From positions 128,232 through 192,231 of the forward strand of contig JAQTMH010000004.1 in NCBI GenBank assembly GCA_028714495.1: a stretch of 64,000 nt of DNA, in the 5' to 3' direction. Below the pieces are notes generated by a model. The model was not told the origin of the DNA, searched no databases, and saw only the letters and a list, made by a program, of their open reading frames with translations. Source of the DNA: Patescibacteria group bacterium (GTDB lineage Bacteria > Patescibacteriota > Patescibacteriia > JAHIZJ01). A program made the position numbers and the translations under genes. The first letter of the stretch is position 1; each line of letters starts with the position of its first letter. Of the stretch, positions 23,707 through 53,111 are shown piece after piece.

Positions 23707-23826
23707 CCAGCTGGGTTAATAAAGGGGGCCTACGGCGGGTTATTTGCCTATGGCTCCGCTTTCGTTTGGACTGAAAATATTGTTAAGGAGCTCTATGATT
23801 GTTGGTGTGAAGGCAAATAAAAAACG
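23707..23826 (+). repeat. copy 1 of a 118-bp near-identical direct repeat (second copy at 35997..36114)
   Basis: 2 mismatches over about 118 bp. Contains a 10-bp long-range complement TTATTTGCCT…AGGCAAATAA, an SD (aaggag) and ATG of a short ORF (MIVGVKANKK…). More diverged homology extends about 65 bp upstream (ACCCGCCTC…). Confidence 0.9.
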
Positions 23827-23908
23827 AGGGCGGAACCTTGTACCGAGTCTGGTACAGGGTCCACCCTCTTGTATTGTTGAAGGTGCAGGCGAGGTTGGTC
23901 AACCTCGC

Positions 23909-25147: not shown

Positions 25148-25300
25148 GCCGTACCCCCTTTTTCTAGCACATTGTCGAAATAGCCTTCTGATAGTAGAAC
25201 TCGGAAGTATAAAGGGAAAATTGGTTTTTGTCAACACCTTTTGGGTTGAAAATAGGGATTTGTTTTTTTCCATAACTTGTGCTATAATAAACTCACCTTT

Positions 25301-26242
25301 ATGGAAAAAGTTACCCTCCCTTTTAGCCAAATAGGCAGAGAGTCGGTGAAAGAAGCCGGTGGGAAAGGGGCAAACCTTGGTGAATTGACAAAAGCCGGGA
25401 TACCAGTACCTCCAGGTTTCGTAGTATTAGCCTCGACATTCCAAAAATACCTTGAGATTTCAGACCTTGACGTGGAACTTGACTCCATCCTCGACGAACT
25501 GAAGATAAAAGACATCAGTTCGGTTGAGCGCGAATCGAGAAAGATGCGATCTTTGATTGATAAGGCTAAGGTGCCGGCTGAAATTCAAAAAGGAATCCAG
25601 GCGGCTTTTAAGCGATTGGGTGCAAAATTCGTCGCGGTTCGTTCTTCAGCCACGGCCGAAGATTCAAAGGTTGCCTCTTGGGCCGGCGAACTCGATACCC
25701 TCCTTTTTGTTACCCAGCCGGAATTGATTAACGCGGTCAGAAAATGCTGGTCATCGCTCTATACCCCGCGCGCTCTATTTTATCGCTTTGAGAAAAAGCT
25801 TCACCATAAAATGATCCGGGTGGCCGTGGTAGTCCAGAAGATGGTTAATTCAATGGTCTCGGGCATCGCCTTCACGACCCATCCGGTAACTCGCGATCCC
25901 AACCAAATGATTATCGAGGCGGGCTGGGGCCTGGGTGAGGCGATTGTCTCGGGTCAGATTACGCCCGACGCCTATGTTATTGATAAAGAAGATAATTCAT
26001 TCATTGACATAAACGTGAATAAGCAGGAGATGATGATTGTCCAAGCCCGGCCCAAAGGAACAAAGAAAGCGATCGTACCGCGCGCTAAGCAGGCCAAACA
26101 GAAATTGACCAATTCGCAGATTCAGACTCTGGTCGGAATTCTTCGCCGGATCGAAAAGTATTATGGCAGCCCCCAGGATATTGAATGGGCTTATGACGGG
26201 AAATTTTATATCGTTCAAACACGTCCGATAACGACTTTGTAA
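25301..26242 (+). CDS. PPDK_N/PEP-synthase-type ATP-grasp (nucleotide-binding) domain protein
   Basis: …VKEAGGKGANLGELTKAGIPVPPGFVV… The ORF-track start is TTG at 25277; ATG at 25301 is preceded by TATAAT. Confidence 0.6.
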   Translation: MEKVTLPFSQIGRESVKEAGGKGANLGELTKAGIPVPPGFVVLASTFQKYLEISDLDVELDSILDELKIKDISSVERESRKMRSLIDKAKVPAEIQKGIQAAFKRLGAKFVAVRSSATAEDSKVASWAGELDTLLFVTQPELINAVRKCWSSLYTPRALFYRFEKKLHHKMIRVAVVVQKMVNSMVSGIAFTTHPVTRDPNQMIIEAGWGLGEAIVSGQITPDAYVIDKEDNSFIDINVNKQEMMIVQARPKGTKKAIVPRAKQAKQKLTNSQIQTLVGILRRIEKYYGSPQDIEWAYDGKFYIVQTRPITTL

Positions 26243-26252: not shown

Positions 26253-28016
26253 ATGGATTCTTCCGTTTCAAATCAACCAACCTCCAATACTCAAATCAAT
26301 CAGAGGATTGAGACTGTTTTGCAGAGCCAATCGCCCAAAGAAGCCTTAAAGCTTCTTCGGCAAATCGGGGGCCAGGGGATGGGCGAGTTGGGAGTGAATA
26401 TCGAAGCTCAAAAGCAGCGTTTGAGAGTAGTCGCCTTGCCTCTATTACCCACTTCTGAATTTCTTTTGCTTTTCGAGGGCGATTTGCGGGCCACCTTCGA
26501 ATTTAATTTGACTGAACGTTTGAGGACGCGATTGGTGTCACTGCCGCTAGTCTCCCAAGACGAGTTTAAACGAACGATCCTGTCAACGCTTCAAAATAAC
26601 ACGAGCGAATTTGTTTCGGGAGATCAAAATACCGCCCAGAAATGGATTGAAAAGTTTTTAGCCAGCCACCAAAATCCCGATGCGTTTATCGCGGCGGCGC
26701 CAGAATTTAAGTCCCTGACCGTCGAGGATCAGCTCAGAGTTCAAAGGCTTTTGCAGGTAGTCCAGCACGCCCTGATATCAGTTACTACGCCAGAGGGATT
26801 GGAAGATGAAATGATGATTCGGGATGAAACTGGGACTTTCAAAGTTTTAAAAGCGGGCGAATTGGTTGAATTGGGTATTGAGCCACGGGAGAAACCGCCA
26901 GCCGCTCCGCCAATTTCAGCCGTTCCGGCGGCACCTTCACAAATAAAGGCCGAAGTCTCATCATCGCGGCCCATCGCTTCTGTTCCGCCGGCCCCCCTAG
27001 CTGTTAAACCAGTACAAAAAACCCCGGCTGATTTCTACTTTCACCCTGAAGATGAAAATGAAGTGCATGACCACCGTGCCCGTTTGGCAAAAATAGATCC
27101 GATTCCGGAGAGCAATTTTGACACAATTGTCGATCAGCTAGTTAGAGATTTTCATCTAGAATTTTCTGGCCAGCCAATCGCCGATCGGTTTAGGAATATT
27201 ATCAAATCTCGTCTCAATGATGTGCGGGATATAATTGAAACACAAAACATGCTTAGCCGGCCAATCGAGGTAGGCGGCGTGGGCCTTGAAGCCGGCTTGG
27301 CCATGAAGATACTCTCCAAAGTTGAGGAAGAATCTCTAAAGATCCATCAGGCGCATTTAGCCAGAGCCGAACCAACTCCTTTGATTGTCCCAGTGCCCAC
27401 CAAAGCCACACCTCTTCCGCCTGAACCGGGGGATGCGGTGCCGCCAGCCGTGACTGTGCCACCGGTTGTTGAGAAGGTTGTGATACCAAAGGCTCCCCCC
27501 GAGATTCAAAAAATTGAGCCAAAACCGGTTGAACCGACGCCCGAACCTAGGCCGGCCTTAGTTGTTCCGCCAATTCAAAAACCTAAAGAATCGCCCAGAC
27601 CGATTCCCCAAAGAATGAGTGGCACGCCGGTCATTAATAGGCCGATCGAATCAAGCCGTCCGACAGTTTCCGACATCCGGCGTCCGGTTAAAACAATCGG
27701 TCCGGTCCAAGAATTGGTCGAGCTGACTCTGAAGGATTATCGCCGCCTCGGTAAAACAATCGAAGAATCAAACGAGAAGATAATGGAAAAACTAGATTTG
27801 TTAGAGGAGGATTCTTATCTCAAAAGAGCCGAGGGGGTCAAGGCTTGGAAAAGCGGCGAGGTGAACCAACTTTACCTCTCGATCGGGCGTGAAAGCATGG
27901 AAAAAGATTTAGCCGTGATCGATGTGATTCGTAAACGCCGGGAGGACGGGTTGCCTTATCTCACGAAAGAAGAATTTGAAATGGTGGCCGATTTGAATAA
28001 GAAAATAAGTTTCTAA
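26253..28016 (+). CDS. hypothetical Pro-rich protein
   Basis: Long PxP-rich linker (…PTPLIVPVPTKATPLPPEPGDAVPPAVTVPPVVEKVVIPKAPPEIQK…). No TM. Confidence 0.4.
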   Translation: MDSSVSNQPTSNTQINQRIETVLQSQSPKEALKLLRQIGGQGMGELGVNIEAQKQRLRVVALPLLPTSEFLLLFEGDLRATFEFNLTERLRTRLVSLPLVSQDEFKRTILSTLQNNTSEFVSGDQNTAQKWIEKFLASHQNPDAFIAAAPEFKSLTVEDQLRVQRLLQVVQHALISVTTPEGLEDEMMIRDETGTFKVLKAGELVELGIEPREKPPAAPPISAVPAAPSQIKAEVSSSRPIASVPPAPLAVKPVQKTPADFYFHPEDENEVHDHRARLAKIDPIPESNFDTIVDQLVRDFHLEFSGQPIADRFRNIIKSRLNDVRDIIETQNMLSRPIEVGGVGLEAGLAMKILSKVEEESLKIHQAHLARAEPTPLIVPVPTKATPLPPEPGDAVPPAVTVPPVVEKVVIPKAPPEIQKIEPKPVEPTPEPRPALVVPPIQKPKESPRPIPQRMSGTPVINRPIESSRPTVSDIRRPVKTIGPVQELVELTLKDYRRLGKTIEESNEKIMEKLDLLEEDSYLKRAEGVKAWKSGEVNQLYLSIGRESMEKDLAVIDVIRKRREDGLPYLTKEEFEMVADLNKKISF

Positions 28017-28019
28017 TTT

Positions 28020-28478
28020 ATGCCGCAGCAGTTTACTGTGCCACAATTTATCGACGTCGAAGATAAAATATTCGGACCGATTTCAGTCCGGCAGTTCGTG
28101 GTTATTTTGGGCGGCGGGTTTATCGAAATTATCCTGTACTTTGCCTCTCCCTTTGTAGTTTTCATCATTTTGGGCTTGATTGTCCTCGGCCTGATAGTGT
28201 TATTCGCCTTTTTCAAGATAAACGGACAATATTTTCATGTCTTTCTGATCAATTTGGCCACAACCGTACGCCAACCCAAACTTCAGCTCTGGAAGAAATC
28301 ATATGACCCGAAAGAATTGGAGGAGAAGAAAAAAGAAACCGCCCCGCCCGGCATTGTCCCCCCGCGAGCCAGCCCCACTTCCAGCCGCCTCCAGGAATTA
28401 GCCTTGATTGTTGATACCGGAGGAGCCTACGGCGAAGAATCTTGGGAAATAGCAAAAGAAGATAAAGACATCGTTTAA
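28020..28478 (+). CDS. PrgI/VirB3-like small membrane protein of type IV secretion systems
   Basis: …FIDVEDKIFGPISVRQFVVILGG… followed by 2 TM helices. Directly upstream of VirB4. Confidence 0.45.
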   Translation: MPQQFTVPQFIDVEDKIFGPISVRQFVVILGGGFIEIILYFASPFVVFIILGLIVLGLIVLFAFFKINGQYFHVFLINLATTVRQPKLQLWKKSYDPKELEEKKKETAPPGIVPPRASPTSSRLQELALIVDTGGAYGEESWEIAKEDKDIV

Positions 28479-28490
28479 ATCTCATAACTT

Positions 28491-29162
28491 ATGGCCAAAC
28501 AAAAAGCCATCGCCTCGCCCACCCAGAAACACGTTCCGATCGCTGAGATTCGGGATAATACGGTAGTACTTAAAGACGGCACGGTCCGAGCCGTAATTTT
28601 GGTTTCCTCAATCAATTTCGCTCTCAAATCCGAGGACGAGCAAAACGCCATTATTCAGGCCTACGTTGAGTTTTTAAACTCTTTTGAATTTCCCGTTCAA
28701 ATTCTGATTCAATCGCGAAAGTTGGATATTGATGAGTATCTCGAACGCTTGGATAAAACTGAAAAAGAACAGACCAATGAGCTTTTAAAAATGCAGACGC
28801 GGGAGTACCGTAAGTTTATCGCGGAGCTGATCGAGATGGCCGACATTATGAGCAAACGTTTTTACGTGGTGGTACCATTTGATCCTCAGTACCAGAAGAA
28901 AGCTAAAAAATTCCTCGACCGGGTAAAAGAACTCTTTGCCCCAAGCAAAGTTATTCAGCTCAAGCGCAGCCAATTTGAAAAATATCGCACAGAATTATCG
29001 AAGCGAGTTGATTTTTTGGTCAGCGGTCTTGGGGCAATGGGTTTGAAGGCGGTGGCCCTCGATACCCAGAGCTTGATTGAACTATATTACAATACTTACA
29101 ATCCGGAGACCTATGATCAGCAGCAGCTCGTGCCGGTAGAAAAGTTACAAATCGAAAACTAA
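28491..29162 (+). CDS. VirB4/TrbE N-terminal-domain protein (split VirB4, part 1)
   Basis: …HVPIAEIRDNTVVLKDGTVRAVILVSSINF…EDEQNAI… like the N-terminus of VirB4/CagE. Stop TAA is 1 nt before the next ATG. Confidence 0.5.
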   Translation: MAKQKAIASPTQKHVPIAEIRDNTVVLKDGTVRAVILVSSINFALKSEDEQNAIIQAYVEFLNSFEFPVQILIQSRKLDIDEYLERLDKTEKEQTNELLKMQTREYRKFIAELIEMADIMSKRFYVVVPFDPQYQKKAKKFLDRVKELFAPSKVIQLKRSQFEKYRTELSKRVDFLVSGLGAMGLKAVALDTQSLIELYYNTYNPETYDQQQLVPVEKLQIEN

Positions 29163-29163
29163 T

Positions 29164-31089
29164 ATGGCTAATATCAATTTATCCAAACAAGCCCAACCAG
29201 TTCAGGAACAAGTCGGACCAAAGCCGGCCCTCTCGACCCAAGAAAAAAAAGAAGTTGAGACGGGCGCGATTGAACGCGAGAAGCGGGCAATCGAAGCCGA
29301 GCGGATCTACCGAGAAGGCGTGGTGACGATTCAGGACTTGATTGCCCCGCCGGCCCTCAAGGTAATGCCGAATTATATTGAACTGGGCGGCAAATTTATC
29401 CGGACAATATTTGTTACGACCTATCCGCGCTTTGTCTCGGTTGGCTGGTTTGCTCCGATAGTCAATTTAAATCTAACGCTGGATATCGCGATGTTCTTTT
29501 ACCCGATCAGCTCGGATATCATATTGAAGCAACTTCGGAATAAAGTAGGCGCCCTCGAAGCCCAGATCATGGGTGACGCGGAAAAGGGATCAGCCCGCGA
29601 TCCGATGATTGAAACGGCGCTCCGGGACGTGGAGAAGCTCCGGGACGATTTGACCCAGGGAATGGAAAAATTTTTCCAATTCGCGCTCTACGTGACGATC
29701 TATGCCGATTCGCTGAAAGAATTAAACGAACTTTCGGATCGGATTGAAGGCATGTTTGGTTCGCGACTAGTCTACAGCAAGCGAGTTTATTATCAGGCTG
29801 AACAGGGTTTTAATACCACCTTGCCATTGGCGACTGATCTGCTGAATATTGCTTTCAATATGAACACCTCGCCCTGCGCGTCGTCTTTTCCTTTCATTTC
29901 TTCCGAATTGACCTCTGACAACGGCATTCTCTACGGCATCAATCGGCACAATAACAGCCTGATTCTTTTCGATCGCTTCAGCCTCCAGAATGCCAATTCC
30001 TGCGTTTTTGCCACCTCGGGCGCGGGCAAAAGCTATGCCGTGAAACTGGAAGTTCTGCGCAGCCTGATGCTTGGCACTGACGTCATCATTATTGATCCGG
30101 AAAAAGAATACAAATATCTCTCTGACGCGGTTGGGGGAGCCTACGTTAATATCTATTTAAATTCTGATTCCAAAATAAATCCTTTTGATCTGCCGCGGCC
30201 CGTGGGCGAAGCCGACAAGCCGGCCGACATCATTCGTTCGGCGGTCATAACGCTGAAAGGGCTGATGCGCCTGATGTTGGGAGAATTTACTCATGAGGAA
30301 GATTCATTAGTTGACCGGGCTTTGATTGAAACCTATGCCAAGAAAGACATCACGGCCGACTCCGACCTGACTAAAATTGAGGCGCCTCTGATGTCCGATT
30401 TCGAAGAAGTGCTTTCGGGCATGGAGGGCGGCGATCAGCTGGTCAAACGTTTGAAGAAATATACCGAAGGTACGTTCTCCGGTCTCTTTAATAGCCCCAC
30501 CAATATCGACGTCAAAAACCAGCTGGTCATATTCAGCGTGCGCGACTTGGAAGACGAGCTAAGACCGATCGCCATCTATATTATTGTCAATTACATCTGG
30601 AACATAGTCCGCTCCGAGCTGAAAAAGAGAATTATGGTAATTGATGAAGCCTGGTGGCTGATGCAAAACGAAGATTCAGCCAAATTTATCTATGCCCTGG
30701 TCAAACGTTGCCGCAAATACTACCTCGGTGTTACTACCATCACCCAGGACGTAAATGATTTCTTGCGCTCGCCCTACGGTCAGGCGATTGTCACCAATTC
30801 CTCGCTTCAGCTGCTGCTTAAGCAATCACCGGCCGGGGTTGATATCTTGGCCAAAACATTTCTTCTGACCCAGGGAGAGAAATATCTGCTGCTGGAGTGC
30901 GGTGTCGGCGAGGGGATTTTCTTTGCCGGGGCTCGACACGCCGCCATCAAAGTAGTCGCTTCCTATACCGAGGACCAGGTGATAACTTCCGATCCAAAAC
31001 AGCTCTTGGAGATCGAGGCGGCGAAAAAGGAATTTGAACAATCAATGGCCGATGATGAAGGGGTTGAATCAGCCGCGCCCAGGTCCTAA
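29164..31089 (+). CDS. VirB4-like type IV secretion ATPase (split VirB4, part 2)
   Basis: Walker A ATSGAGKSY, Walker B MVIDEAWWLM, …ITQDVNDF…. Confidence 0.7.
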   Translation: MANINLSKQAQPVQEQVGPKPALSTQEKKEVETGAIEREKRAIEAERIYREGVVTIQDLIAPPALKVMPNYIELGGKFIRTIFVTTYPRFVSVGWFAPIVNLNLTLDIAMFFYPISSDIILKQLRNKVGALEAQIMGDAEKGSARDPMIETALRDVEKLRDDLTQGMEKFFQFALYVTIYADSLKELNELSDRIEGMFGSRLVYSKRVYYQAEQGFNTTLPLATDLLNIAFNMNTSPCASSFPFISSELTSDNGILYGINRHNNSLILFDRFSLQNANSCVFATSGAGKSYAVKLEVLRSLMLGTDVIIIDPEKEYKYLSDAVGGAYVNIYLNSDSKINPFDLPRPVGEADKPADIIRSAVITLKGLMRLMLGEFTHEEDSLVDRALIETYAKKDITADSDLTKIEAPLMSDFEEVLSGMEGGDQLVKRLKKYTEGTFSGLFNSPTNIDVKNQLVIFSVRDLEDELRPIAIYIIVNYIWNIVRSELKKRIMVIDEAWWLMQNEDSAKFIYALVKRCRKYYLGVTTITQDVNDFLRSPYGQAIVTNSSLQLLLKQSPAGVDILAKTFLLTQGEKYLLLECGVGEGIFFAGARHAAIKVVASYTEDQVITSDPKQLLEIEAAKKEFEQSMADDEGVESAAPRS

Positions 31090-31121
31090 GCCTGGATAAT
31101 TTGACTTATTAAAATAAATTT

Positions 31122-31760
31122 ATGAAAGGTTTCCGGATTATCATCATCATTATAGGAGTCTTAGTGGTTTTGTCGGCGATAATTTTGGTAGTGACGCGTT
31201 TCACGGGTTCATCAAAGAATGACAACGCCAACACCGGGAACACAAACAACACCCAGATTATCAACAACACCGCTCCGGCTAACAATAATACGAACCAAAC
31301 CGCTAATTCGAATAATGCTAACACCAACTCAGGTAACAATACCAACAAAAATACCAATACCGCGCCAGTTACTCCAACTGGCGAGGCAAGCTTAAAAGCC
31401 ACGGCCCGGAGTTTCGCCGAGCGCTTCGGCACCTTTTCAAATTACAGCGATTACGAAAACGTCGAGCACTTACTGCCCTACATGACCCAGCGGATGAAGA
31501 AATGGGCGAATAAGTACATCGAAGAACAAAGAGCCAAACCGCCCTATACCGGCATTTACAGCGGAACCACGACCAAGGCCTTATCGGTAAAAACCTCAAG
31601 TTTTGAGGAAGCTGCCGGTACGGCCGAATTTCTAGTCAGCACCCAGCGCAAGGAATCAACCGGCACGACTTCCAACGCTCGCATATATTATCAAGACATC
31701 AAGATAAAGTTTGTTAAAGAGCAGTCAGTTTGGAAAGTTGATGAGGCCTGGTGGCAATAA
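31122..31760 (+). CDS. membrane-anchored hypothetical protein (N-terminal TM, Asn/Thr-rich linker, globular C-domain)
   Basis: ORF architecture only. Confidence 0.4.
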   Translation: MKGFRIIIIIIGVLVVLSAIILVVTRFTGSSKNDNANTGNTNNTQIINNTAPANNNTNQTANSNNANTNSGNNTNKNTNTAPVTPTGEASLKATARSFAERFGTFSNYSDYENVEHLLPYMTQRMKKWANKYIEEQRAKPPYTGIYSGTTTKALSVKTSSFEEAAGTAEFLVSTQRKESTGTTSNARIYYQDIKIKFVKEQSVWKVDEAWWQ

Positions 31761-31769
31761 AATCCTGAC

Positions 31770-32501
31770 ATGGCAAGCCCTTCAGATAATTTAAACAACC
31801 AACCAGGAAGGCCAAGGGGATCTTCAAAAGACATTAAAAACCGGACTGGAAAATCGCGTTCTCCAGGAGAAAATATCAATCGGCAAAAAGGCCGGTTGCC
31901 TGAAAACCAGATGGGTTTGGACAGGCAAAGGGGCAGGGATTTTCGAACCCGAGAACGACAGGCGGAATCCATGGGTTCTCCATTAAGCCCGGCAGGTATT
32001 CAAGGCCGGCTAGGTAACGTCTTGAATCGTTCAGTCGATGATTTTGATAGTCGTCGGACCATCGGTGGCCTTCGCGGGCAGAGCACGGCGGGGATGAAGG
32101 ACGATATCACAAGTCCGGCTGAGCAGAGAGCGGCCAGCCGGCGGATGGGCAGCGCTAAGGCTCAAGCGGCTCAAGCCGCGGTTCAAGCCATAGCCGAAGG
32201 TGAGGGGAAAGGACAGGTGGCTGAAGCGGCCGCGGCGGCAGCGCTCGAAGCTAAAAAAATACAGCAATTTCGATTAATTTTGTTGGCTATCAGAGGCGGC
32301 AGCGCGATTACAGTCGTCGGCATCATTATCACGATTCTTATCTGGGGCATTCAGCTGATCGTCGGCCATATCATGGGCCATGAAAAATGGAAGATGTCGA
32401 AGTGGGAACTGCCCTTCGCGATAATCATCTGGGTATTAGTATTTTTTGCTGTCGTGGTGCAGTTTAGTATTTGGGCATTGTACCTGAAGATTATTCAATA
32501 A
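31770..32501 (+). CDS. hypothetical membrane protein with Arg-rich disordered N-terminus and C-terminal TM helices
   Basis: ORF architecture only. Confidence 0.4.
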   Translation: MASPSDNLNNQPGRPRGSSKDIKNRTGKSRSPGENINRQKGRLPENQMGLDRQRGRDFRTRERQAESMGSPLSPAGIQGRLGNVLNRSVDDFDSRRTIGGLRGQSTAGMKDDITSPAEQRAASRRMGSAKAQAAQAAVQAIAEGEGKGQVAEAAAAAALEAKKIQQFRLILLAIRGGSAITVVGIIITILIWGIQLIVGHIMGHEKWKMSKWELPFAIIIWVLVFFAVVVQFSIWALYLKIIQ

Positions 32502-32553
32502 TACTGTCGGACTGATACTGTTTTAAATTCGCTATATTAGCTATAATGCTTAT

Positions 32554-33693
32554 ATGAGAAAAAATCCAAAAACCAAGGCTTTTATTCTGGGTTTAGGTCT
32601 GGCGATTGTCTTGACCGGTTTGATTATTATTCCGGCGGCCAGCGTCCCTGGTCTGGTCAGCCAGGCTCGGGCTGCCAGTGATTCAAGCGTGCCCCCGCCC
32701 TGCAATCAGTGTGGTGAAGGTCAAATTTGTTTAAATGTCTGGATTAACACTTGGTGTGTAACAAATCTGGCGGAGTATATATCAATATTTTATCGATACT
32801 TTATTGGGATAATCGGAATATTCGCGGTCGCCATGATAATGTTCGGAGGATTCAAATGGATTACCGCCAGCGGTAATTCTGAAAAGATCAACCAGGCCAA
32901 GGATAATATCACCTCAGCCATTATCGGCGTAGTTATCGCGTTGTTTTCTTACGTCCTGCTTCAGACCATTAATCCGATGATCACTTCGTTAAAGAGTGAC
33001 ATATCCGGTATCACCGGGATAGAAGGCGCCTATTCGCAAATTTGCCAGAATCTGTATGGAGCTGGCTGGCAGGCCAAGGTTGGCAAAGGGGCTGATTTTA
33101 ACGCAGAATGCGGCGATGAGTTGGATATAATAGACGCTGCGGGAAACCCTACGGGCGTCAAGTGCTATGGTGGACATTGCGCAGAGGGTCAAATATGCGG
33201 CTTCTCGGTAATGAGTGGTTATAAATGTGGTACTCCAAAAAAATTATGCGAAGATACCGATAAAACTAAATGCCGACAGACTGATTCGATAATCAAGGCG
33301 TCGCAAGCAGAGGGCGCCATTGATTATGGCTGCGCGAAAAGAATTGATAATACTTGGTCAATAACCGGCCTTTATGCCGCTGAAGGCGCTGACGAATGCG
33401 TTTACAACCCGGTAATAAAGAAAGAACAATGGGAGGCGGCCGGGTACGAAAGAGTAAATTGTGGAGAATCGGAAGCAAAAAATAGATGTTGGTATATGCC
33501 GGGCAATGCAAAAATGCCAGCCTGTAAAACTGTTGGCGTTAATATCCCTCTTATAGGTTATTTACAAATTGACGCTAGAATGCGTTGTTGTACTGATTCT
33601 GAACGGCCAATAGTTGGAGCCAACACCGTTTGCGTCAGGAAGGTGGGCCTGCCGCCGAACGATCCTGAATCATATACTCTCTGGGAGCCGTAA
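32554..33693 (+). CDS. Cys-rich TrbC/VirB2-like pilin-like membrane protein with large Cys-rich C-terminal domain
   Basis: Signal peptide, PPCNQCGEGQICLN, helix 1, loop …SGNSEKINQAKDN…, helix 2, then ~230-aa domain with about 20 Cys. Confidence 0.4.
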   Translation: MRKNPKTKAFILGLGLAIVLTGLIIIPAASVPGLVSQARAASDSSVPPPCNQCGEGQICLNVWINTWCVTNLAEYISIFYRYFIGIIGIFAVAMIMFGGFKWITASGNSEKINQAKDNITSAIIGVVIALFSYVLLQTINPMITSLKSDISGITGIEGAYSQICQNLYGAGWQAKVGKGADFNAECGDELDIIDAAGNPTGVKCYGGHCAEGQICGFSVMSGYKCGTPKKLCEDTDKTKCRQTDSIIKASQAEGAIDYGCAKRIDNTWSITGLYAAEGADECVYNPVIKKEQWEAAGYERVNCGESEAKNRCWYMPGNAKMPACKTVGVNIPLIGYLQIDARMRCCTDSERPIVGANTVCVRKVGLPPNDPESYTLWEP

Positions 33694-33722
33694 TATTTAG
33701 TAGACTTTTCGGAATAATTTAA

Positions 33723-34964
33723 ATGACTCTTTCACCAAGGACCAAAAAAATAATTTTCATTAGCCTGGTTGTTATCGTGACTGGCTTGTTAGCCTACGGT
33801 ATTTATTTTCTATTTTTCCAGCAGCTCATAACGCCGGAAAATGAAAATAAAAACGCTAACGGAAATGTGAATGGAGGAACATTGCCGAATACGAACGTCA
33901 ATCGTTTAGTCAACCGAAATACCAACGTGAACACCAACGGCGCGACGAACTTACCCCAAATATCTGATATTGCCAATGGCGGATTGACCAAGGTGACTGA
34001 CGTGGCTGATGTGGCCGTGGAAGCTGGGGCGCCGACGAGCGACCGGACCGGCTACGTCTATTACGATTCGGCGACGCATAAGTTTTACCAGATATTAGCC
34101 AATGGCGAGCGTGTCGAGCTTTCAGATAAAGAGTTTTATGACGTAGCCAATGTGGCCTGGTCGCCGGACCGCAATCAGGCGATTATGGCCTATCCTGACG
34201 GCAGTAAAATATATTACAATTTTAAAAGCGGCCAGACCGTCACCTTGCCGAAGGAGTTAAATGACGTGCATTTTTCCGAGGCCGGAGATAAAATTGCCTA
34301 CGAATTTCTGGGCGAGGAGGAAAACGAGCGCTGGCTGGCCATAGCCAACCCTGACGGCAGCGGACAGCAAATACTCGAACCGCTCGGCGATCGCGACAAC
34401 CGCGTCGAAGTCAATATGTCTCCGGATGCCCAGGTGGTGGGTATTTATCGCGAGGGGATCGGCGTCGATCAGGAGGAGATTTATTTCCTGGGCCAGCACG
34501 GCGAGAATTTTAAATCAATGGTGGTTGACGGGGCTGGTTTTGAAGGCCAGTGGACGCCCCAAGGCGATAAGCTGCTTTACAGCGTTTATAATTCAGAAAG
34601 TGATTATAAGCCGGAATTGTACATTGTAGACGCCCGGGGAGAGAATATTGGTTTAAATAAGCTAGATCTGGATTTGAACACCTGGTCTGACAAATGCGCC
34701 TTTTCCGGATCGAGTCTTTACTGCGCCGTGCCAAATGATTTGCCGACTGGCGCCGGATTGGACCCGAGCTTAGCCAGCCAAACGACTGACAGTTTTTACC
34801 AAGTAAATCTAGAAACAGGCCAGAAGTCCTTATTGGCCATACCCTATTCGGGCTCCAGTCAGATCGGCTATTCGGCCGAAGGCGTCTATCTCTCGCTTGA
34901 CGGCAGTTACCTGTACTTTCGCAATGCTCTCACGGGCAAGCTTGATAAGATACAGATAAAATAA
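33723..34964 (+). CDS. membrane-anchored beta-propeller (TolB-like) protein
   Basis: N-terminal TM, Asn-rich linker, repeated …Y(Y/V)…S(P)DG… blades. Confidence 0.45.
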   Translation: MTLSPRTKKIIFISLVVIVTGLLAYGIYFLFFQQLITPENENKNANGNVNGGTLPNTNVNRLVNRNTNVNTNGATNLPQISDIANGGLTKVTDVADVAVEAGAPTSDRTGYVYYDSATHKFYQILANGERVELSDKEFYDVANVAWSPDRNQAIMAYPDGSKIYYNFKSGQTVTLPKELNDVHFSEAGDKIAYEFLGEEENERWLAIANPDGSGQQILEPLGDRDNRVEVNMSPDAQVVGIYREGIGVDQEEIYFLGQHGENFKSMVVDGAGFEGQWTPQGDKLLYSVYNSESDYKPELYIVDARGENIGLNKLDLDLNTWSDKCAFSGSSLYCAVPNDLPTGAGLDPSLASQTTDSFYQVNLETGQKSLLAIPYSGSSQIGYSAEGVYLSLDGSYLYFRNALTGKLDKIQIK

Positions 34965-34973
34965 TCAAAAAAT

Positions 34974-35714
34974 ATGGCAGAAAAACCCATTCAAACGCAC
35001 ACCAAGGTTAAAACAGCGGTAGTTGTCACCATCGGGGTTATCGCCTTTTTAGTAATCGCCTTGCTAATCGTAATATTTAGGAACGTGATCGCTGAAGGAT
35101 TATTCAGCCGGGTAAAAGTTACCTATGAAGGAATGTATAATCCATTCGTAATCTCAGGCAATGCCCTGGTGACTGCCGCGGAAAAAGAAATCTCCGGCCA
35201 GCCGGAACTCCGGCCGACTGATCCGACGCAAGGTTCAAGCAGTCCGAAAATAAAGATTTTTGAATTCGGGAGTTTTAATAGCGGTTACTCGGCTGCCGCC
35301 CAAAGCGTAGTGGAACAAATAGTAACGGATTATGGTGGCGAAGTTCAGATTATCTGGAAAGATTATTTTGACCAAACCGACTCAATCGCCAGGCTCGGCG
35401 CCGAAGCAGCACGGTGTGGCCAACAGCAAAATAAATTTTGGGAAATGCAAAAAGTGATTTATCAAACCCAGGGGGGATTTACCAGGGACAAGCTGATTGA
35501 GTTGGCGAAGGGTTTAAATCTGAACCTAGACAATTTTAATAGTTGCCTGGATAAAAAAGAAGTTGACGGCGTAATAGACCAAAATATCAGCGAAGCGATC
35601 CAGCTACACTTGCCTGGCGCTCCGATATTCTTCGTGGATGATAAAGTGCTGAAAGGCGTAGTGACTTACCGGGAGTTTGAAGCGCTGGTGAAACAGGAAT
35701 TGAAGGGTAAATAG
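34974..35714 (+). CDS. DsbA-like thioredoxin-fold protein lacking the catalytic CXXC motif
   Basis: Aligns with the bona fide DsbA at 40184..40909 (…KFWEM…), but CPAC is replaced by NSGY (FEFGSFNSGYSAA). Confidence 0.55.
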   Translation: MAEKPIQTHTKVKTAVVVTIGVIAFLVIALLIVIFRNVIAEGLFSRVKVTYEGMYNPFVISGNALVTAAEKEISGQPELRPTDPTQGSSSPKIKIFEFGSFNSGYSAAAQSVVEQIVTDYGGEVQIIWKDYFDQTDSIARLGAEAARCGQQQNKFWEMQKVIYQTQGGFTRDKLIELAKGLNLNLDNFNSCLDKKEVDGVIDQNISEAIQLHLPGAPIFFVDDKVLKGVVTYREFEALVKQELKGK

Positions 35715-35996
35715 CTGCCAGAGAATTCAAAATGTAAAATGCAAAATTTAGGTTGCCGCCGTAGGCGGATACCAACATTTTTAATTTTGAGTTTCTTCCC
35801 TGACCCAACGGATTTCGTATACTTTTATCCGAGGATCTTTGCCGGTGGTATACAGCGATACCCGCCCAGCAGTCATGCCGGACTTGATCCGGCATCTCCA
35901 TTATCAACCCGAGGTGAATAATTATATAGACCATACCCGCCTCTGGTTGGTACTTAATCAGCCTTACCTATTTTCATTATCCATCTAGCTTTTTCC

Positions 35997-36114
35997 AGCT
36001 AGGTTAATAAAGGGGGCCTACGGCGGGTTATTTGCCTATGGCTCCGCTTTCGTTTGGCCTGAAAATATTGTTAAGGAGCTCTATGATTGTTGGTGTGAAG
36101 GCAAATAAAAAAAG
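35997..36114 (+). repeat. copy 2 of the 118-bp direct repeat
   Basis: See 23707..23826. Confidence 0.9.
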
Positions 36115-36230
36115 ACGGCAGGTGTCGTCTCGACATGGGTATCATGGGTGCCAAAGCCGGGCTTTGACTTGGGGGATTCTAATCCCGATACCTGTCATAT
36201 GAGACGATAACTGCCGTTATGTGCCGGAAG

Positions 36231-36629
36231 CTACGCTAGAGCTGGCACAGCCGCCTCGGTCGCCATGGACGCACGCGCGTCAGGTACGGGGCTGACCCGG
36301 AGGTCAAAGGGCTCGGCACCGCAGGCGCGGATGAGCTCTTCATCACCACCGAGAAAGACTACCCGTCTGGCGGGATTGACCATGTGTCCGGCCCGATTCC
36401 TGTACGGCTGCGTAGAGGCGAGCCAGTTGGTCAGACTGAGGTTACCCTCGGACGCGACCACGCCGCACACCTTGCCGGGTCGGACTTCGTTGGAGCAGAC
36501 CTCCAGGTCTCTGATTGTGTTCGGACTGCCTGCCACAGCGAATCTGATACCGGGTGTGTGCGTGTGACTGCCATCTTTGCCATTAACGTGATTGAAACAG
36601 CACATGTGGATCTCCCGATCTTTGTACAA
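36231..36629 (-). pseudogene. decayed M20D amidohydrolase paralog fragment in a GC-rich segment
   Basis: …HMCCFNHVNG…SHTHT… and …RRVVFLGGDEELIRACGAEPFD… parallel …MHACGHDFHT… and …RLLFTQAEE…ELIRARGADGL… of the intact M20D gene. Several overlapping ORFs on both strands, none convincing. Confidence 0.3.
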
Positions 36630-37008
36630 CCCTTCCTGGGTTGTGGGTTTAGAAGAGGACCTCCTTACCTCCGTGTGGTTGTAATAGCCCTAGTCAGGTG
36701 AACTTATTCTTCATCCAACCCCTCCTTCCCCTCTTCGAAGTTCTGATCCTGGCAGTGCCTGGCACTGCTCCAGCCTGGTTCCTCCTCGGGAAAAAGTGGG
36801 GGAGAGCGCGGCAGTTGACAAATGGCGTTGGCTTGGATACGTGGAGATCGGGAGAAGACCACGATACCCATTGCCCAGCGCCTTACTTGTTCATACGTGT
36901 CCGGCTCTCCCATAAACCTGTTTATCTCTAGAAGAGAGGTACTCGATAACCCAGAATACAAAGAGCGTATTTTTATAATACGCTAATTTGCTAATATGTC
37001 AAGCTGGG

Positions 37009-39090
37009 TTATTCCCAGTGGATTGAGTCTTTAAACTCCTTCATTTTTTGGCGAATGTGGGGATATTTAGATAATTCAAAGTCTTGCTCTAGGATATTTT
37101 TGGCTAAAGTTTGAGCTTTTTTAATAATGGGGAAGTCGGTAAGCTTGGCAATTCTGAATTCTGGGAAACCCGACTGTTTCAGGCCATAAAGCTCGCCCGG
37201 GCCGCGCATTTCCAGGTCTTTCTCTGCCAATTCAAAGCCGTTTTGGGAGGTGAGAACAGCCTGGAGGCGGTTTCGGCCCGCTTCACTTTCAGTTTCGGTG
37301 AGGAGGAAGCAGTAGGATTGGTAGAGCCCGCGGCCGACCCGACCGCGAAATTGATGGAGCTGAGCCAGGCCGAAGCGTTCAGCCGCCTCGATCAGCATAA
37401 CGGTGGCATTAGGTATATCAATCCCGACTTCGACTACCGAGGTCGAGACGAGCAGTTGGATGTGGTTTGCCAGAAACTCGCGCATAACTTTTTCCCGGCT
37501 TTCGGGCCTTAAGCGGCCGTGAAGCAAGCCAATTTTGAATTCAGGAAAAATCTTGGTCGACAGGCGTTCGTATTCCTCCCTGACCGATTTAACGCCCAAT
37601 TTGTCGGACGGATCGATCAGCGGACAGATAACGAAAACTTGTCGGCCGCTTTGGATTTCCTCCGAGATGAAATCGTAGGTGGCTTTCCGTTCGTGCGGCA
37701 ATACGATTTTTGTTGCGATCTTCTGCCGGCCTTTGGGCAGCTCGTCAATAATCGAAATATCCAAATCGCCGTAAAAACCCAGGGCGAGCGTTCGAGGTAT
37801 GGGTGTAGCCGTGAGACTTAAAAAATGGGGTGAGAGTTCGGAATGCGCCCGGGATTTATTAGTCAGCTGCTTTCTCTGGTCTACGCCGAAACGGTGCTGT
37901 TCGTCGACGATAGCCAGTCCCAGGTTTTTGAAGACAACATGCTCCTGAAGTATGGCCTGGGTGCCGATGACCAGCTGAGCATTTCCGTTTGCGATTTTAT
38001 GGTTAAGGGTGGTCTTGGAAACAGCTTTTTTCGGTCGGCTAATCCATTTCTGGGTTCGGGTCAAGAGACAAACGGTGATTTTTTGTTTCTGAAAAAGTTT
38101 GGTAAAGGTTTCGAAGTGCTGCTGGGCGAGGATCTCCGTTGGCGCCAGCATAACTGATTGCCAGCCCCGATCAGCCGCGTTTAAAATTGCCAAGCTGACC
38201 ACCACGGTCTTGCCTGAACCGACATCACCTTCCAGTAGCCGGTTCATTGGCCGGCGCTGTTCCATGTCTTTCAGTATTTCCCAGGCTGAGCGGCGCTGGG
38301 CGTTTGTCAATTTATATGGCAGGGCTTCGACAAAACGTTTGGTCTTTTCTTGATTAAAAGGGATGGCTGGCGCCGGCGTGTGTTCGAGCAGGCGGCGATT
38401 TTGGAGAGTGTATATTTGGATCGGAAAGAGCTCGTCGAACTTCAAGCGTTCCACGGCTTTTTTGAGCCAGGCCTCATTCCTGGGAAAGTGAATTTCCTGA
38501 AGCGCCAGGGGTAGTTCTAATAGATCGACTTCTTTTTTTAGCTGATACGGCAAATAATCAACAGTTCTTCGAGCCAGGGGCTTTGACAACTGGGTTAAGA
38601 ATCGCAGCTGTCTCTGCGTCAATCTGCTGGTAGTTGGATATACGGGCACCAGACGGCCAGTATGGATTTGCGGTCCGCTCAGTTTTTCATATGACGGGCT
38701 GGTGAAGTGAAGTCCGTATTTATCCATTTCGAGCTTGCCTGAAACGACAATTTTGTCTCCCGGAACAAAGGTCTTAGCCAAGTAAGGCTGGTTAAACCAG
38801 ATGATTTTAACTGAACCCGTCTGGTCGCTGACGATCGCCTCGGTGATATACAGGCGGCGGCGGAAACTACGGCGGTTTTGGATGGCGTCAATCTTGCCTT
38901 TGATGGTGACTCGGATGCCAGAGGTAAGTTTGTCTATAGTCGTGATATTAGAAAAATCCTCATACCGCGAAGGGAAATGATAGAGGATGTCTTTGGCATG
39001 TTTTAGGCCGAGATTTTTGAGGCGCTTAGCCACAGTTTGGCCGACCGAGTAGAGTTTCTCAACCGGCGTGTCGAATTGTATAAGTTCCAT
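37009..39090 (-). CDS. recG: ATP-dependent DNA helicase RecG
   Basis: Wedge domain N-terminus, helicase motifs GDVGSGKT, DEQHRFGV, …QLHQFRGRVGRG…. Confidence 0.9.
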   Translation of the reverse strand: MELIQFDTPVEKLYSVGQTVAKRLKNLGLKHAKDILYHFPSRYEDFSNITTIDKLTSGIRVTIKGKIDAIQNRRSFRRRLYITEAIVSDQTGSVKIIWFNQPYLAKTFVPGDKIVVSGKLEMDKYGLHFTSPSYEKLSGPQIHTGRLVPVYPTTSRLTQRQLRFLTQLSKPLARRTVDYLPYQLKKEVDLLELPLALQEIHFPRNEAWLKKAVERLKFDELFPIQIYTLQNRRLLEHTPAPAIPFNQEKTKRFVEALPYKLTNAQRRSAWEILKDMEQRRPMNRLLEGDVGSGKTVVVSLAILNAADRGWQSVMLAPTEILAQQHFETFTKLFQKQKITVCLLTRTQKWISRPKKAVSKTTLNHKIANGNAQLVIGTQAILQEHVVFKNLGLAIVDEQHRFGVDQRKQLTNKSRAHSELSPHFLSLTATPIPRTLALGFYGDLDISIIDELPKGRQKIATKIVLPHERKATYDFISEEIQSGRQVFVICPLIDPSDKLGVKSVREEYERLSTKIFPEFKIGLLHGRLRPESREKVMREFLANHIQLLVSTSVVEVGIDIPNATVMLIEAAERFGLAQLHQFRGRVGRGLYQSYCFLLTETESEAGRNRLQAVLTSQNGFELAEKDLEMRGPGELYGLKQSGFPEFRIAKLTDFPIIKKAQTLAKNILEQDFELSKYPHIRQKMKEFKDSIHWE

Positions 39091-39129
39091 ACCTTCATCG
39101 TATCAAATTACCGTGAAAAGAGAAACAAC

Positions 39130-39158
39130 AAAAAAACGGGCTAAGCAGCCGTTTTTCT
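39130..39158. terminator. bidirectional terminator between the tRNA-Arg locus and recG
   Basis: A-run, bulged hairpin ACGGGCTAAGCAGCCGT, then T-run. Confidence 0.5.
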
Positions 39159-39166
39159 TTACGAAG

Positions 39167-39360
39167 TTGTGCGCCTGGTCCCACCACTAGCTCGCGTTGC
39201 TCGTCGTCCGGGACAAGCTCTGCGACTGTCATTTCTCTCCTTTGTGCGCCCGGCAGCCCCGCACCATTCCGCTTCGCTCCAGGTATGGGGTCTTCGAGAG
39301 TTGAATCCCGGATCTCCTCGCATTGCTTGTCGTCCGGGACAAGCTCTGCGACCTAGGTAT
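39167..39360 (-). repeat. tRNA-Arg-derived debris: two partial copies of the tRNA-Arg 3' end, a degenerate T-arm/acceptor fragment and two copies of a 37-nt hairpin repeat
   Basis: TTGTGCGCCTGGTC (39167-80), TTGTGCGCCCGGCAG (39242-56) vs tRNA end TTGGTGCGCCCGGCAGG. Hairpin repeat …CTTGTCGTCCGGGACAAGCTCTGCGAC at 39190-39226 and 39316-39352. Confidence 0.6.
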
Positions 39361-39369
39361 TCCTCAACT

Positions 39370-39446
39370 TGGTGCGCCCGGCAGGAGTTGAACCTGCGGC
39401 CTTGAGATCCGCAATCTCACGCTCTATCCAGCTGAGCTACGGGCGC
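39370..39446 (-). tRNA. tRNA-Arg (anticodon GCG as read)
   Basis: GCGCCCGTAGCTCAGCTGGATAGAGCGTGAGATTGCGGATCTCAAGGCCGCAGGTTCAACTCCTGCCGGGCGCACCA. Canonical cloverleaf, CCA encoded. Confidence 0.8.
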
Positions 39447-39481
39447 ACCAAGTTGATGAGTAATGCATTATGGTTTAATAG

Positions 39482-39547
39482 TCGGGGTTTAATTGAAGAG
39501 TTTATCCCCGCGAAAGCGGGGACTCTATCCAGCTGAGCTATGAGGGC
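39482..39547 (-). pseudogene. truncated tRNA-like 5' half (acceptor + D-arm) fused to a GC hairpin
   Basis: GCCCTCATAGCTCAGCTGGATAGAG (D-arm identical to tRNA-Arg) then CCCCGC-TTTC-GCGGGG. No T-arm or 3' acceptor. Confidence 0.4.
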
Positions 39548-39613
39548 TTGGTAAGACGGACTCTTGTGTTATTTATGAGGGTTATATTGATACTGCGCTG
39601 GGGCTACAGGCAC

Positions 39614-40105
39614 TCATAGTTTGTAATCACGACTTAGAACTTCAGAGAGAGATTCGTCCTCCTTAGTCGGATCTTCTTTGAGGTAGTTGAGCAGGATGTC
39701 GCGGACTTTCACGGGATTAGCGTTTTCCAGTTGAATGACCAAATCGGGCCGTAAGTTTGATTTGAAATTAAGGTAGAGATATTTGCTCTCCGGTGGTTTG
39801 TATATTAACCAGAATTTGGCGATGCTGTCAAAAGAATAAAACCTATTTTCAACCTCAAGGCCATCTTCGGTGATAGTTAATTTCAAAATTAGAGGCTTTC
39901 GTCTGGCGGTGATCAGAATTACCGCCCAGATGATGATAATCATCATCAGGAAGAGAAAGTTAGCTGTCATGACGGCATAGAGGGCGCTGAGAGCGCCGAT
40001 CAGAAGAAATACAGTGTACCAAACTTTTCCGCGCCTGTGCTCTTGAAATTCGGGAAACTTCCAGGAGATAAGCTTTTTACCGCGGTCGGGTGTATTTTCG
40101 GGCAT
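39614..40105 (-). CDS. hypothetical membrane protein
   Basis: Two adjacent TM helices then soluble domain. Confidence 0.4.
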   Translation of the reverse strand: MPENTPDRGKKLISWKFPEFQEHRRGKVWYTVFLLIGALSALYAVMTANFLFLMMIIIIWAVILITARRKPLILKLTITEDGLEVENRFYSFDSIAKFWLIYKPPESKYLYLNFKSNLRPDLVIQLENANPVKVRDILLNYLKEDPTKEDESLSEVLSRDYKL

Positions 40106-40183
40106 ATTAAATACGCTAATAATTAGCGCTTACATCTTAACACTTTTTCAGCAAAAACAACAGAGATTGCTGATTTATTTTGC

Positions 40184-40909
40184 TTATTTTAAAGCCTCGT
40201 CGAGAGCCTGTTTTAATTCGGAATAACTCTGGAACGGATTGAGAAATTTTCCGTTAAGATAGTAGGTCGGTGTGCCACGGATGGGAATTTTCTGGCCGTT
40301 TTTATAAGCCTCGTCAACGATTTTCTTTATCTCATCAGAGGCGTAGTCGGTTTGGAATTTTTGACTGTCCAGACCGAGCGATTTGGCGTAACTTATAAAC
40401 TTACTTGATGGATCGTTTTCGCTTGACCAGTCCGATTGTTTTTCAAAAAGAAAATCGTGCATTTCCCAGAATTTGTCCTGTTTATTGGCGGCTTCGGCGG
40501 CTCGGGCAGCCGGCTCGGCATTTGGATGGATATTTTTCAAAGGGAAATGACGAAAGACAAAAGCCACCTTGTCGCCGTATTCCTCCTGAGCTTTTTTGAT
40601 CAGAAAGTAGCGGGCAGAGCAAGCCGGGCACTGGAAGTCGCTGTATTCGATCAAAATTGCTCGAGCGTTTCGCGCGCCTTTGACGTTATCAGAATCAGCG
40701 ATTGTCTGAACTGATGGTTTTTGACCGTCTGTTTTTTTTGTGGCAAAAAGAATACCGGTGATTCCCAGACAGACGGCTAAAACCAAGCCACCCCAAAGAA
40801 GCATCTTTTTTGGCTTTCTTTGCGCCGTTAATTGAGTTCCTTTCCTATCTTGTCGTTCGATTTCCCGGCGTTCCCGTCTTGTGATTGGTTGTTCGCTTGG
40901 TTGGTTCAT
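40184..40909 (-). CDS. DsbA-family thiol:disulfide oxidoreductase (membrane-anchored)
   Basis: N-terminal TM, YSDFQCPACSARY catalytic CPAC, …KFWEMHD…. Confidence 0.7.
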   Translation of the reverse strand: MNQPSEQPITRRERREIERQDRKGTQLTAQRKPKKMLLWGGLVLAVCLGITGILFATKKTDGQKPSVQTIADSDNVKGARNARAILIEYSDFQCPACSARYFLIKKAQEEYGDKVAFVFRHFPLKNIHPNAEPAARAAEAANKQDKFWEMHDFLFEKQSDWSSENDPSSKFISYAKSLGLDSQKFQTDYASDEIKKIVDEAYKNGQKIPIRGTPTYYLNGKFLNPFQSYSELKQALDEALK

Positions 40910-52070: not shown

Positions 52071-52078
52071 AAAAAGAG

Positions 52079-53110: not shown

Positions 53111-53111
53111 T

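Follow-up and report, generated by a model that had tools for sequence, protein, structure and literature searches.

A chromosomal type IV secretion locus of the patescibacterial type with a giant cysteine-rich pilin, a probable beta-propeller protein and a DsbA-like protein without CXXC

Here we describe a type IV secretion system (T4SS) locus in a 64,000-nucleotide stretch of DNA from a Patescibacteria group bacterium (GenBank assembly GCA_028714495.1, contig JAQTMH010000004.1, positions 128,232 to 192,231 of the forward strand), hereafter the window, in whose numbering all coordinates are given. Positions 26253–35714 (+ strand) form a single, tightly packed, co-directional cluster with gaps of 1–52 nucleotides (nt) between genes. 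The cluster is a chromosomal T4SS typical of Patescibacteria, in the form seen in Kerfeldbacteria- and Buchananbacteria-type (ABY1) genomes. An initial annotation, made from the sequence alone, let the module begin at 28020; all eight open reading frames (ORFs) that it listed are present and co-directional, but the conserved unit starts one gene upstream, at 26253. Two independent assemblies from other sequencing runs are 100% identical to the window over 30031–36031 and 32321–35159. The genes of the cluster are as follows (aa, amino acids).

26253–28016, + strand: up587, a soluble protein of 587 aa with Pro-rich linkers, directly upstream of the PrgI gene in 65 of 65 related loci
28020–28478, + strand: PrgI/VirB3-like protein with two transmembrane helices; PF12666, 34.4 bits (gathering cut-off 27)
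28491–29162, + strand: TrsD-like protein (the VirB4 N-domain as its own gene), 223 aa; partial NCBIfam profile matches
29164–31089, + strand: VirB4 ATPase of the monoderm MPF-FATA type, 641 aa; CD1110-family equivalog
31122–31760, + strand: bitopic protein of 212 aa, VirB8-like as predicted by AlphaFold2 and Foldseek, present in 50 of 50 loci with downstream flank
31770–32501, + strand: fast-evolving membrane protein, 243 aa; N-terminal region of about 160 aa basic and of low complexity, two hydrophobic helices in the C-terminal part
32554–33693, + strand: giant VirB2-like pilin, 379 aa; PF18895, 43.5 bits (cut-off 26.6)
33723–34964, + strand: membrane-anchored, putative PD40 (TolB-like) beta-propeller protein with an Asn-rich linker, present in 45 of 50 loci
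34974–35714, + strand: membrane-anchored DsbA-like protein without CXXC; Thioredoxin_4 (E = 6.5e-18) and DSBA (E = 2.7e-14)

We scanned one genome per species for related loci and kept the best 80, with VirB4 68–87% identical. Gene content was determined with blastp, the window proteins being compared with the ORFs of each locus, and counts are given among loci with enough flank. All 80 loci come from metagenome-assembled genomes of Patescibacteria, namely Kerfeld-, Buchanan-, Komeili-, Veblen- and Magasanikbacteria, with some unclassified or mislabelled (TPA) bins; we take these lineages to belong to the GTDB class ABY1. The conserved gene order is up587, PrgI, TrsD, VirB4, 212-aa protein, variable membrane protein, Cys-rich pilin, propeller, DsbA-like protein, a second pilin in some cases, and radA, with recG mostly on the opposite strand. 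PrgI and TrsD, like up587, occur in 65 of 65 loci, the 212-aa protein in 50 of 50, the propeller in 45 of 50, the pilin in at least 37 of 50 by blastp, and the DsbA-like protein in 26 of 50. A radA gene (with zinc finger, Walker A and KNRFG; for example, 17545–18894 of locus L006) follows the T4SS cluster in 35 related loci, mostly co-directionally; it is not at this position in the window, in locus L002, or in L083, a close strain (GCA_028717285.1; 97.4% nucleotide identity over 26318–41059 of the window). The giant Cys-rich pilin, the propeller and the DsbA-like gene are recurrent parts of the loci of relatives, as is the TrsD–VirB4 pair, and the composition that the initial annotation regarded as that of an odd minimal system is not unusual.

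The profile searches bear out the T4SS families of the core proteins: the proteins starting at 28020, 29164 and 32554 give PrgI, VirB4 and T4SS_pilin matches above the curated cut-offs, and that of the TrsD-like protein starting at 28491 is significant. Specifically, in NCBIfam the 223-aa TrsD-like protein matches VirB4_plasma at positions 101–265 (E = 3e-12), CD1110 at positions 2–140, and TrsD (E = 5.8e-5), while the 641-aa VirB4 matches the CD1110-family profile at positions 172–729 with 354 bits (cut-off 325). Because the first ORF covers the N-terminal part of the profile and the second the remainder, the two ORFs tile one VirB4, as had been proposed. The ATPase also matches P-loop_TraG in Pfam (E = 9e-27), its translation contains Walker A (GAGKS) and Walker B (DEAW), and its best PDB match is 4ag5, the Gram-positive VirB4 of Thermoanaerobacter (E = 1e-47); TrwK reaches E = 1e-7 in PDB. 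A weak, partial match to CedB (E = 3e-11) comes from NCBIfam. On these sequence matches, the VirB4 of the window is of the Patescibacteria-clade, MPF-FATA-derived monoderm type.

The junction of the two ORFs reads GAAAAC TAA T ATG, and the initial annotation had raised the possibility of a frameshift to be checked by re-sequencing. TrsD and VirB4 are separate ORFs in 78 of 78 related loci, the spacing between them varies, and the three relative frames are about equally frequent, so the split is ancient and stable and is not a frameshift or a sequencing error. Re-sequencing is unnecessary, and a mis-annotation is avoided, since the "split VirB4" is not to be repaired as a frameshift.

Two small membrane proteins had been noted between VirB4 and the pilin. 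One of them, the 212-aa protein, is rather VirB8-like by its predicted structure and its topology. An AlphaFold2 model, computed from a 31-sequence alignment, contains a transmembrane helix (aa 3–28), an Asn-rich disordered linker and an NTF2-like domain (aa 86–212), with pLDDT above 90. In a Foldseek search of PDB the best match of the model is CagV, a VirB8 homologue (E = 2.5e-5, target-normalised TM-score 0.69), and further top matches are the VirB8 domain of PrgL, TcpC, TrwG of R388, and the VirB8 proteins of Brucella and Agrobacterium, the VirB8-type matches having target-normalised TM-scores of 0.6–0.69. The sequence gives no match to a VirB8, PrgL or TraE profile in Pfam or NCBIfam, and the family profile finds nothing among PDB sequences. 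A VirB8-like protein at this locus fits the survey of 3,035 Patescibacteria genomes by Quinonero-Coronel et al. 2025, in which detectable VirB8 homologues are almost confined to ABY1 (PMC12102498). The other small protein, of 243 aa, does have two hydrophobic helices. It has no family match in Pfam or NCBIfam; by iterated hidden Markov model (HMM) searches, its family is found at the corresponding position of at least 15 loci, and the 243-codon ORF is intact in L083.

The first gene of the unit, up587, ends 3 nt ahead of the PrgI gene. It is conserved in its middle (about aa 270–370) and at its C-terminus (about aa 490–587). Searches of Pfam, NCBIfam and PDB sequences gave no match for up587, a Pfam scan gave none for its orthologues, and the family profile found nothing significant among PDB sequences.

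The 379-aa pilin is composed of a signal peptide, an N-terminal motif with four Cys, a PF18895 hairpin (aa 71–138; 32764–32967) and a C-terminal head of about 230 aa (33001–33690), and it contains 20 Cys, 16 of them in the head, in agreement with the initial description of a VirB2-like two-helix protein with a Cys-rich extension. In the AlphaFold model, the helices of the hairpin span aa 72–104 and 109–139. A word-indexed protein search gave only about ten pilin homologues, and the alignment behind this model is therefore shallow. The family of the head is very narrow: an exhaustive HMMER search of 1.84 billion cluster representatives yielded 13 matches at E ≤ 1e-3, nine of which, pilins of 338–386 aa without exception, cover the greater part of the head. 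An HMM of the hairpin found 77 pilin-domain proteins in the related loci, with medians of 414 aa, 18 Cys and 217 aa after the hairpin, so that great length and richness in Cys are usual for pilins of this clade. Furthermore, related loci often have two pilin copies, which flank the propeller–DsbA pair. The window also holds a second pilin.

9511–10410, + strand: second PF18895 pilin, 299 aa, 13 Cys; 36.5 bits (cut-off 26.6), also found by the hairpin HMM

This second pilin is unlinked to the cluster, lying 18 kb upstream, and its C-terminal head differs from that of the first. With the C-terminus of a pilin from the T4SS locus L016 that head shares 55% identity, indicating that pilin heads are modular. 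Conserved SCHYGG...VDF and (E/D)DHTH motifs in the head of the second pilin resemble the signature of LAS/M15 metallopeptidases; a peptidase reading found no support in Pfam at E ≤ 10 or in a PDB sequence search. Directly downstream of the second pilin, 10515–16049 (+ strand) encodes an alpha-2-macroglobulin-like protein of 1,844 aa (A2M, bait-region and MG10 domains) with a HINT/intein-like insertion at about aa 1080–1210.

Comparison with L083 reveals one part of the pilin head that differs far more than the rest of the protein.

32995–33303, + strand: hypervariable patch of the pilin head (aa 148–250), compared with L083

Specifically, the pilins of the two strains are 100% identical over aa 1–147, 68% over aa 148–250 and 97% over aa 251–379. 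Within the patch, dS is 0.56 and dN is 0.21, and every Cys is matched in the gapped alignment; one 300-nt bin holds 73 differences, versus 0–23 and mostly fewer than 10 in the other bins. The tenfold increase in dS suggests that the patch was replaced through recombination, a divergent allele being the source, and did not arise by point mutations alone. The window holds no silent cassette that could have donated it. By the Nei–Gojobori method, dN/dS between the window and L083 is 0.033 for VirB4, 0.059 for the propeller, 0.066 for the CXXC-less DsbA-like gene (20 synonymous and 5 non-synonymous changes), 0.08 for PrgI and 0.17 for the VirB8-like gene. Over a wider range of divergence, among 106 pairs of loci whose VirB4 proteins share at least 82% identity, the median protein identities are 85.5% for VirB4, 76% for TrsD, 66% for PrgI, 60% for the propeller, 46% for the VirB8-like protein, 45% for the DsbA-like protein, 43% for up587 and 30.5% for the pilin, although best-hit pilins may be paralogues.

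The propeller protein taken alone has a weak match only, to Peptidase_S9_N (E = 0.0033). A PF07676 PD40 match is found in 27 of 44 orthologues (best E = 3.8e-8), and through these the anchored protein of the initial annotation is a probable beta-propeller. The protein has a single transmembrane helix, and an orthologue alignment reveals an invariant Cys pair, C325 and C334. The family profile matches nothing significantly among PDB sequences.

The DsbA-like protein encoded at 34974–35714 has the thioredoxin fold with a helical insertion, as in DsbA, and its nearest solved structures are 3gyk and the BdbD structure 3eu3 (E = 2e-7 for BdbD). Consistent with the initial annotation, the CXXC is missing: NSGY (aa 102–105; nt 35277–35288) occupies the position at which relatives have CPFC, CPYC or CEFC. 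The cis-Pro, P217, is kept, G-A-P217 aligning with T-P or V-P of the relatives. Without CXXC, the protein is not a DsbA-type thiol oxidase in the catalytic sense. A CxxC is present in 26 of 32 relatives, and on a neighbour-joining tree of VirB4 it has been lost at least three times: once in the window and L002, which retain the cis-Pro; once in L058, L061, L065 and L071, which have lost the cis-Pro as well; and once in L009, where the motif is SPLC. The loss of the motif, which is lineage-specific, agrees with the "catalytically dead oxidoreductase" of the initial annotation, but the gene is maintained: its dN/dS of 0.066 marks it as selected rather than as a pseudogene. A second DsbA paralogue with an intact motif lies 4.5 kb away.

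40184–40909, − strand: second DsbA paralogue with intact CPAC; Thioredoxin_4 (E = 4.5e-25)

The setting of the cluster is chromosomal, with recG, comFC, tRNAs, ClpC and a type IV pilus cluster in the window, and this setting matches the published account of ABY1, in which the T4SS is linked to recG, radA and comF (PMC12102498). Two of these neighbours are the following.

37009–39090, − strand: RecG
41791–42516, − strand: ComFC

Pfam and NCBIfam scans covered the non-nested ORFs of at least 400 aa and most smaller non-nested ORFs of the 64-kb window. They revealed no relaxase, no VirD4-type coupling protein (type IV coupling protein, T4CP), and no VirB6, VirB9, VirB10 or VirB11-type T4SS gene, and the statement of the initial annotation that such homologues are lacking therefore holds for all that it named except VirB8. 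The only T2SSE-family ATPases in the window are PilB and PilT, both within the type IV pilus cluster. The relaxase and coupling protein that accompany VirB4 in a conjugative T4SS were thus not found within 64 kb; nor was a DsbB-like, BdbC-like or VKOR protein found in the window, nor an integrase among the ORFs scanned. A promoter and terminator scan gave no usable signal, as terminator-like sites were no commoner than in shuffles.

These features place the locus in a system that has been described. In the survey, the VirB4 proteins of Patescibacteria form a monophyletic clade within MPF-FATA, TrsD has 2,272 homologues in the group, mostly beside virB4, PrgI/VirB3 is found, as are VirB2-like PF18895 pilins near virB4, and relaxases are rare (PMC12102498); a 2025 review repeats these findings (PMC12857230). 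Every one of the characters examined in the window agrees, namely the type of VirB4, a separate TrsD-like protein, PrgI/VirB3 and PF18895 pilin next to virB4, and the lack of a nearby relaxase or T4CP; the locus is also chromosomal and, like other ABY1 members, stands next to recG and comF. In Southlakia epibionticum, a T4SS with a pilin array, and with no relaxase or coupling protein, is essential for epibiotic growth (PMC10633639, PMC12857230). The initial annotation was thus correct in seeing here a T4SS-type module such as has been described from episymbiotic bacteria of the candidate phyla radiation, as judged from the family matches, the restriction of the related loci to Patescibacteria and these publications (PMC10633639, PMC12102498). 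The locus belongs to this published system, and most of what had seemed unusual about it is normal for the clade.

The locus differs from that system in several respects. In place of the pilin-gene array of Saccharibacteria (Southlakia SEML1_0006–0019), the window has giant pilins of 299 and 379 aa with Cys-rich, modular heads. In addition, unlike in the survey account of the Patescibacteria-clade T4SS, the cassette includes a PD40 propeller and a DsbA-like gene: the main text of PMC12102498 does not mention thioredoxin, DsbA, propeller or disulfide and uses "cysteine" only for the VirB1 amidohydrolase domain, and the Pfam names and accessions of Thioredoxin_4, DSBA and PD40 are absent from the part of its supplements available to us. 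The cluster also has neither a VirB6 homologue nor a peptidoglycan hydrolase. The giant modular Cys-rich heads, the PD40 propeller, the recurrently inactivated yet selected DsbA and the hypervariable head patch are modestly new.

Other T4SSs share parts of this plan. The trsC–trsD–trsE genes of pGO1/pSK41, a subclass of MPF-FATA, have the same order of VirB3-like, TrsD and VirB4 as separate genes and likewise no recognisable match to a VirB6 profile (PMC12102498); but they are carried on plasmids and serve conjugation, they come with a relaxase, a T4CP and a hydrolase of VirB1 type, and they lack a VirB2-like pilin, a propeller and a DsbA. The T4SS of the Mycoplasma integrative conjugative element, also from a monoderm, likewise combines a small VirB2-like hairpin protein (Mbov_0395, pilin-like) with VirB4 (Mbov_0397). 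The NCBIfam profiles made for Mycoplasma match the pilin (NF045849, E = 8e-8) as well as TrsD and VirB4 (NF045975), all below the equivalog cut-offs; in that system, however, the VirB4 profile describes a single polypeptide, the pilin profile has 80 positions and no head, and the genes lie on a mobile element.

BdbD of Bacillus subtilis oxidises components of the competence pseudopilus. The BdbD/BdbC pair is relevant here as BdbD is among the nearest solved relatives of the DsbA-like protein, from which it differs in that the CXXC is missing in the window. A protein of this kind is known from F-like systems: TraF of the F plasmid is a CXXC-less thioredoxin-fold factor of pilus assembly that stands beside redox-active TrbB and Cys-rich TraN, TraU and TraH, and non-redox TraF alone is not observed, according to PMC11315126. 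The window is similar in that a CXXC-less thioredoxin-fold protein is kept together with a nearby redox-active paralogue (the CPAC DsbA) and Cys-rich extracytoplasmic clients. TraF and TrbB are DsbC-like proteins of a diderm periplasm, whereas the protein here is DsbA/BdbD-like and membrane-anchored in a monoderm, and the likeness is probably convergent. In DsbI of the Helicobacter DsbI–HP0231 pair, a Dsb membrane protein and a beta-propeller are joined (PMC4597128). The propeller–DsbA gene pair of the window is reminiscent of this, although its propeller has no DsbB domain.

Taking the locus as a whole, we think it rather probable that this patescibacterial T4SS serves an episymbiotic lifestyle, with pilin heads contacting the host, rather than plasmid transfer. 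The VirB3, TrsD, VirB4 and VirB8-like proteins would form a platform in the membrane that draws out the VirB2-like hairpins and builds them into a short structure on the surface, by analogy to characterised T4SSs, in which a VirB4-containing platform extracts VirB2 from the membrane (summarised in PMC12102498). The N-terminal four-Cys motif and the C-terminal head would both lie outside the membrane and would be folded oxidatively, normally by the DsbA of the locus. With both Cys segments on the outer side of the hairpin, the need for oxidative folding would explain why the cluster encodes a membrane-anchored DsbA. The CXXC-less DsbA of this lineage would probably be a redox-inactive binding or holdase factor, as TraF in F-like systems, while the CPAC DsbA, a candidate oxidising source for the Cys-rich pilins, would supply oxidation. 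The propeller may be a wall-spanning scaffold or an assembly factor, and the variable heads, one with a recombining hypervariable patch, may be the contact surface for host cells.

Several points weigh against this interpretation. The AlphaFold model of the pilin is of moderate confidence (pLDDT 66 overall, 75–90 in parts of the head), its head has no Foldseek match in PDB at E < 1, and polymerisation of a pilin with a 230-aa head may be sterically difficult. Neither a peptidoglycan hydrolase nor a VirB6-like polytopic channel protein is found in the cluster or the 64-kb window, and genes for a T4CP, a relaxase, VirB6 or VKOR/DsbB could sit beyond the window. The dN/dS values come from one strain pair with few substitutions (25 in the DsbA gene), and any role for the propeller, up587 or the 243-aa protein is conjecture.

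A bolder version of the host-contact reading, which we offer tentatively and consider doubtful, is that the ABY1 T4SS has been rebuilt around giant VirB2-like subunits carrying interchangeable, recombining, disulfide-rich heads for host recognition, serviced by the propeller and by a repeatedly inactivated but selected DsbA chaperone convergent with TraF. If true, the locus would encode a means of pilus display by which a monoderm achieves host specificity; no such system is described in the literature that we could search.

The locus could instead be a machine for DNA uptake and processing, its VirB4 system importing host DNA or nucleotides like archaeal Ced, together with the neighbouring recombination and competence genes. 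Such a role would suit the radA genes that follow the cluster co-directionally in related loci, the recG and comFC genes that flank it in the window, as they do in the ABY1 loci of the survey, and the weak CedB match. However, radA is missing from this position in the window, L002 and L083, yet the T4SS genes are under strong purifying selection; recG and comFC are on the opposite strand; the locus has no CedA-like polytopic protein; and the Cys-rich hypervariable heads would be left unexplained. Furthermore, PMC12857230, citing Wang et al. 2023, states that deletion of comEC in S. epibionticum abolishes competence and leaves the cells viable, the T4SS being essential independently of ComEC. 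We regard a DNA-uptake machine as unlikely.

It is also improbable that the locus is a dedicated channel for effectors or metabolites, in which the pilins form a conduit and the main role is transfer of proteins or small molecules into or out of the host instead of adhesion. T4SSs that secrete proteins without a T4CP do exist, for example Ptl and Brucella VirB (PMC12102498, PMC12857230), and Wang et al. 2023 proposed protein export or an alternative role for the T4SS (PMC10633639). Against this, the Pfam and NCBIfam scans show no candidate effector, VirB6-like channel or coupling protein in the cluster or window, and the fastest-evolving parts are the surface heads, which suits recognition better than conduction. 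As for a decayed integrated conjugative element, with relaxase and coupling protein lost, VirB4 frameshifted and the DsbA a pseudogene, it would account for the missing relaxase, T4CP and CXXC and the two VirB4 ORFs, but it is hardly credible given the two-gene VirB4 of all 78 loci with variable spacing and all three frames, the gene order kept across dozens of species-level genomes in a housekeeping context, dN/dS values of 0.03–0.17 for core genes and 0.066 for the CXXC-less DsbA, and the lack of an integrase among the scanned ORFs.

The T4SS is among the few machines found to be essential in epibiotic Patescibacteria. The locus indicates that, in one large class, the T4SS is coupled both with oxidative folding and with surface heads that are very large and change fast. 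It also offers testable handles: a candidate host-contact protein, a defined hypervariable patch to follow in populations, and a redox-dead, selected DsbA that is a candidate chaperone of assembly.

The stretch from the DsbA-like gene to recG is one in which relatives carry a second pilin and radA.

35715–37008, no strand: ORF-poor gap of 1.3 kb, GC-richer

We considered whether the gap is a decayed second pilin or radA, or an RNA gene; tblastn with the ORFs of the 80 loci gave no match and no radA remnant, and Rfam has no match to the gap even at E ≤ 1. The gap is not conserved with L002 and is about 97% identical in L083. It contains one copy of a 125-nt direct repeat (35995–36119; the other copy, 96.8% identical, at 23707–23831), both copies being intergenic. 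The repeat holds an AAGGAG-ATG start of a short ORF. In fold prediction it is no more stable than shuffled sequence, and a copy is also present in L083.

Upstream of the cluster, PEP synthase/PPDK domains are found in separate ORFs, a PEP-utilizers mobile domain at 21228–22664 (+ strand) and PPDK_N at 25277–26242 (+ strand), with an unassigned 270-aa ORF (22688–23500, + strand) and an opposite-strand M20 peptidase between them; the PPDK_N ORF stops 10 nt ahead of up587. Farther downstream, the type IV pilus cluster (50949–62457) encodes PilM, a PilO-like protein, PilB, a response regulator, PilT, PilC, N_methyl pilins and a prepilin peptidase, and immediately upstream of it is a 1,396-aa ORF (46626–50816, + strand) without a Pfam match. 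Near the start of the window, 1125–5108 (+ strand) encodes a 1,327-aa protein with repeated fibronectin-III and purple-acid-phosphatase-N-type domains and, at its end, an AhpC/TSA (peroxiredoxin-like) domain, a further extracytoplasmic redox-type domain in the window.

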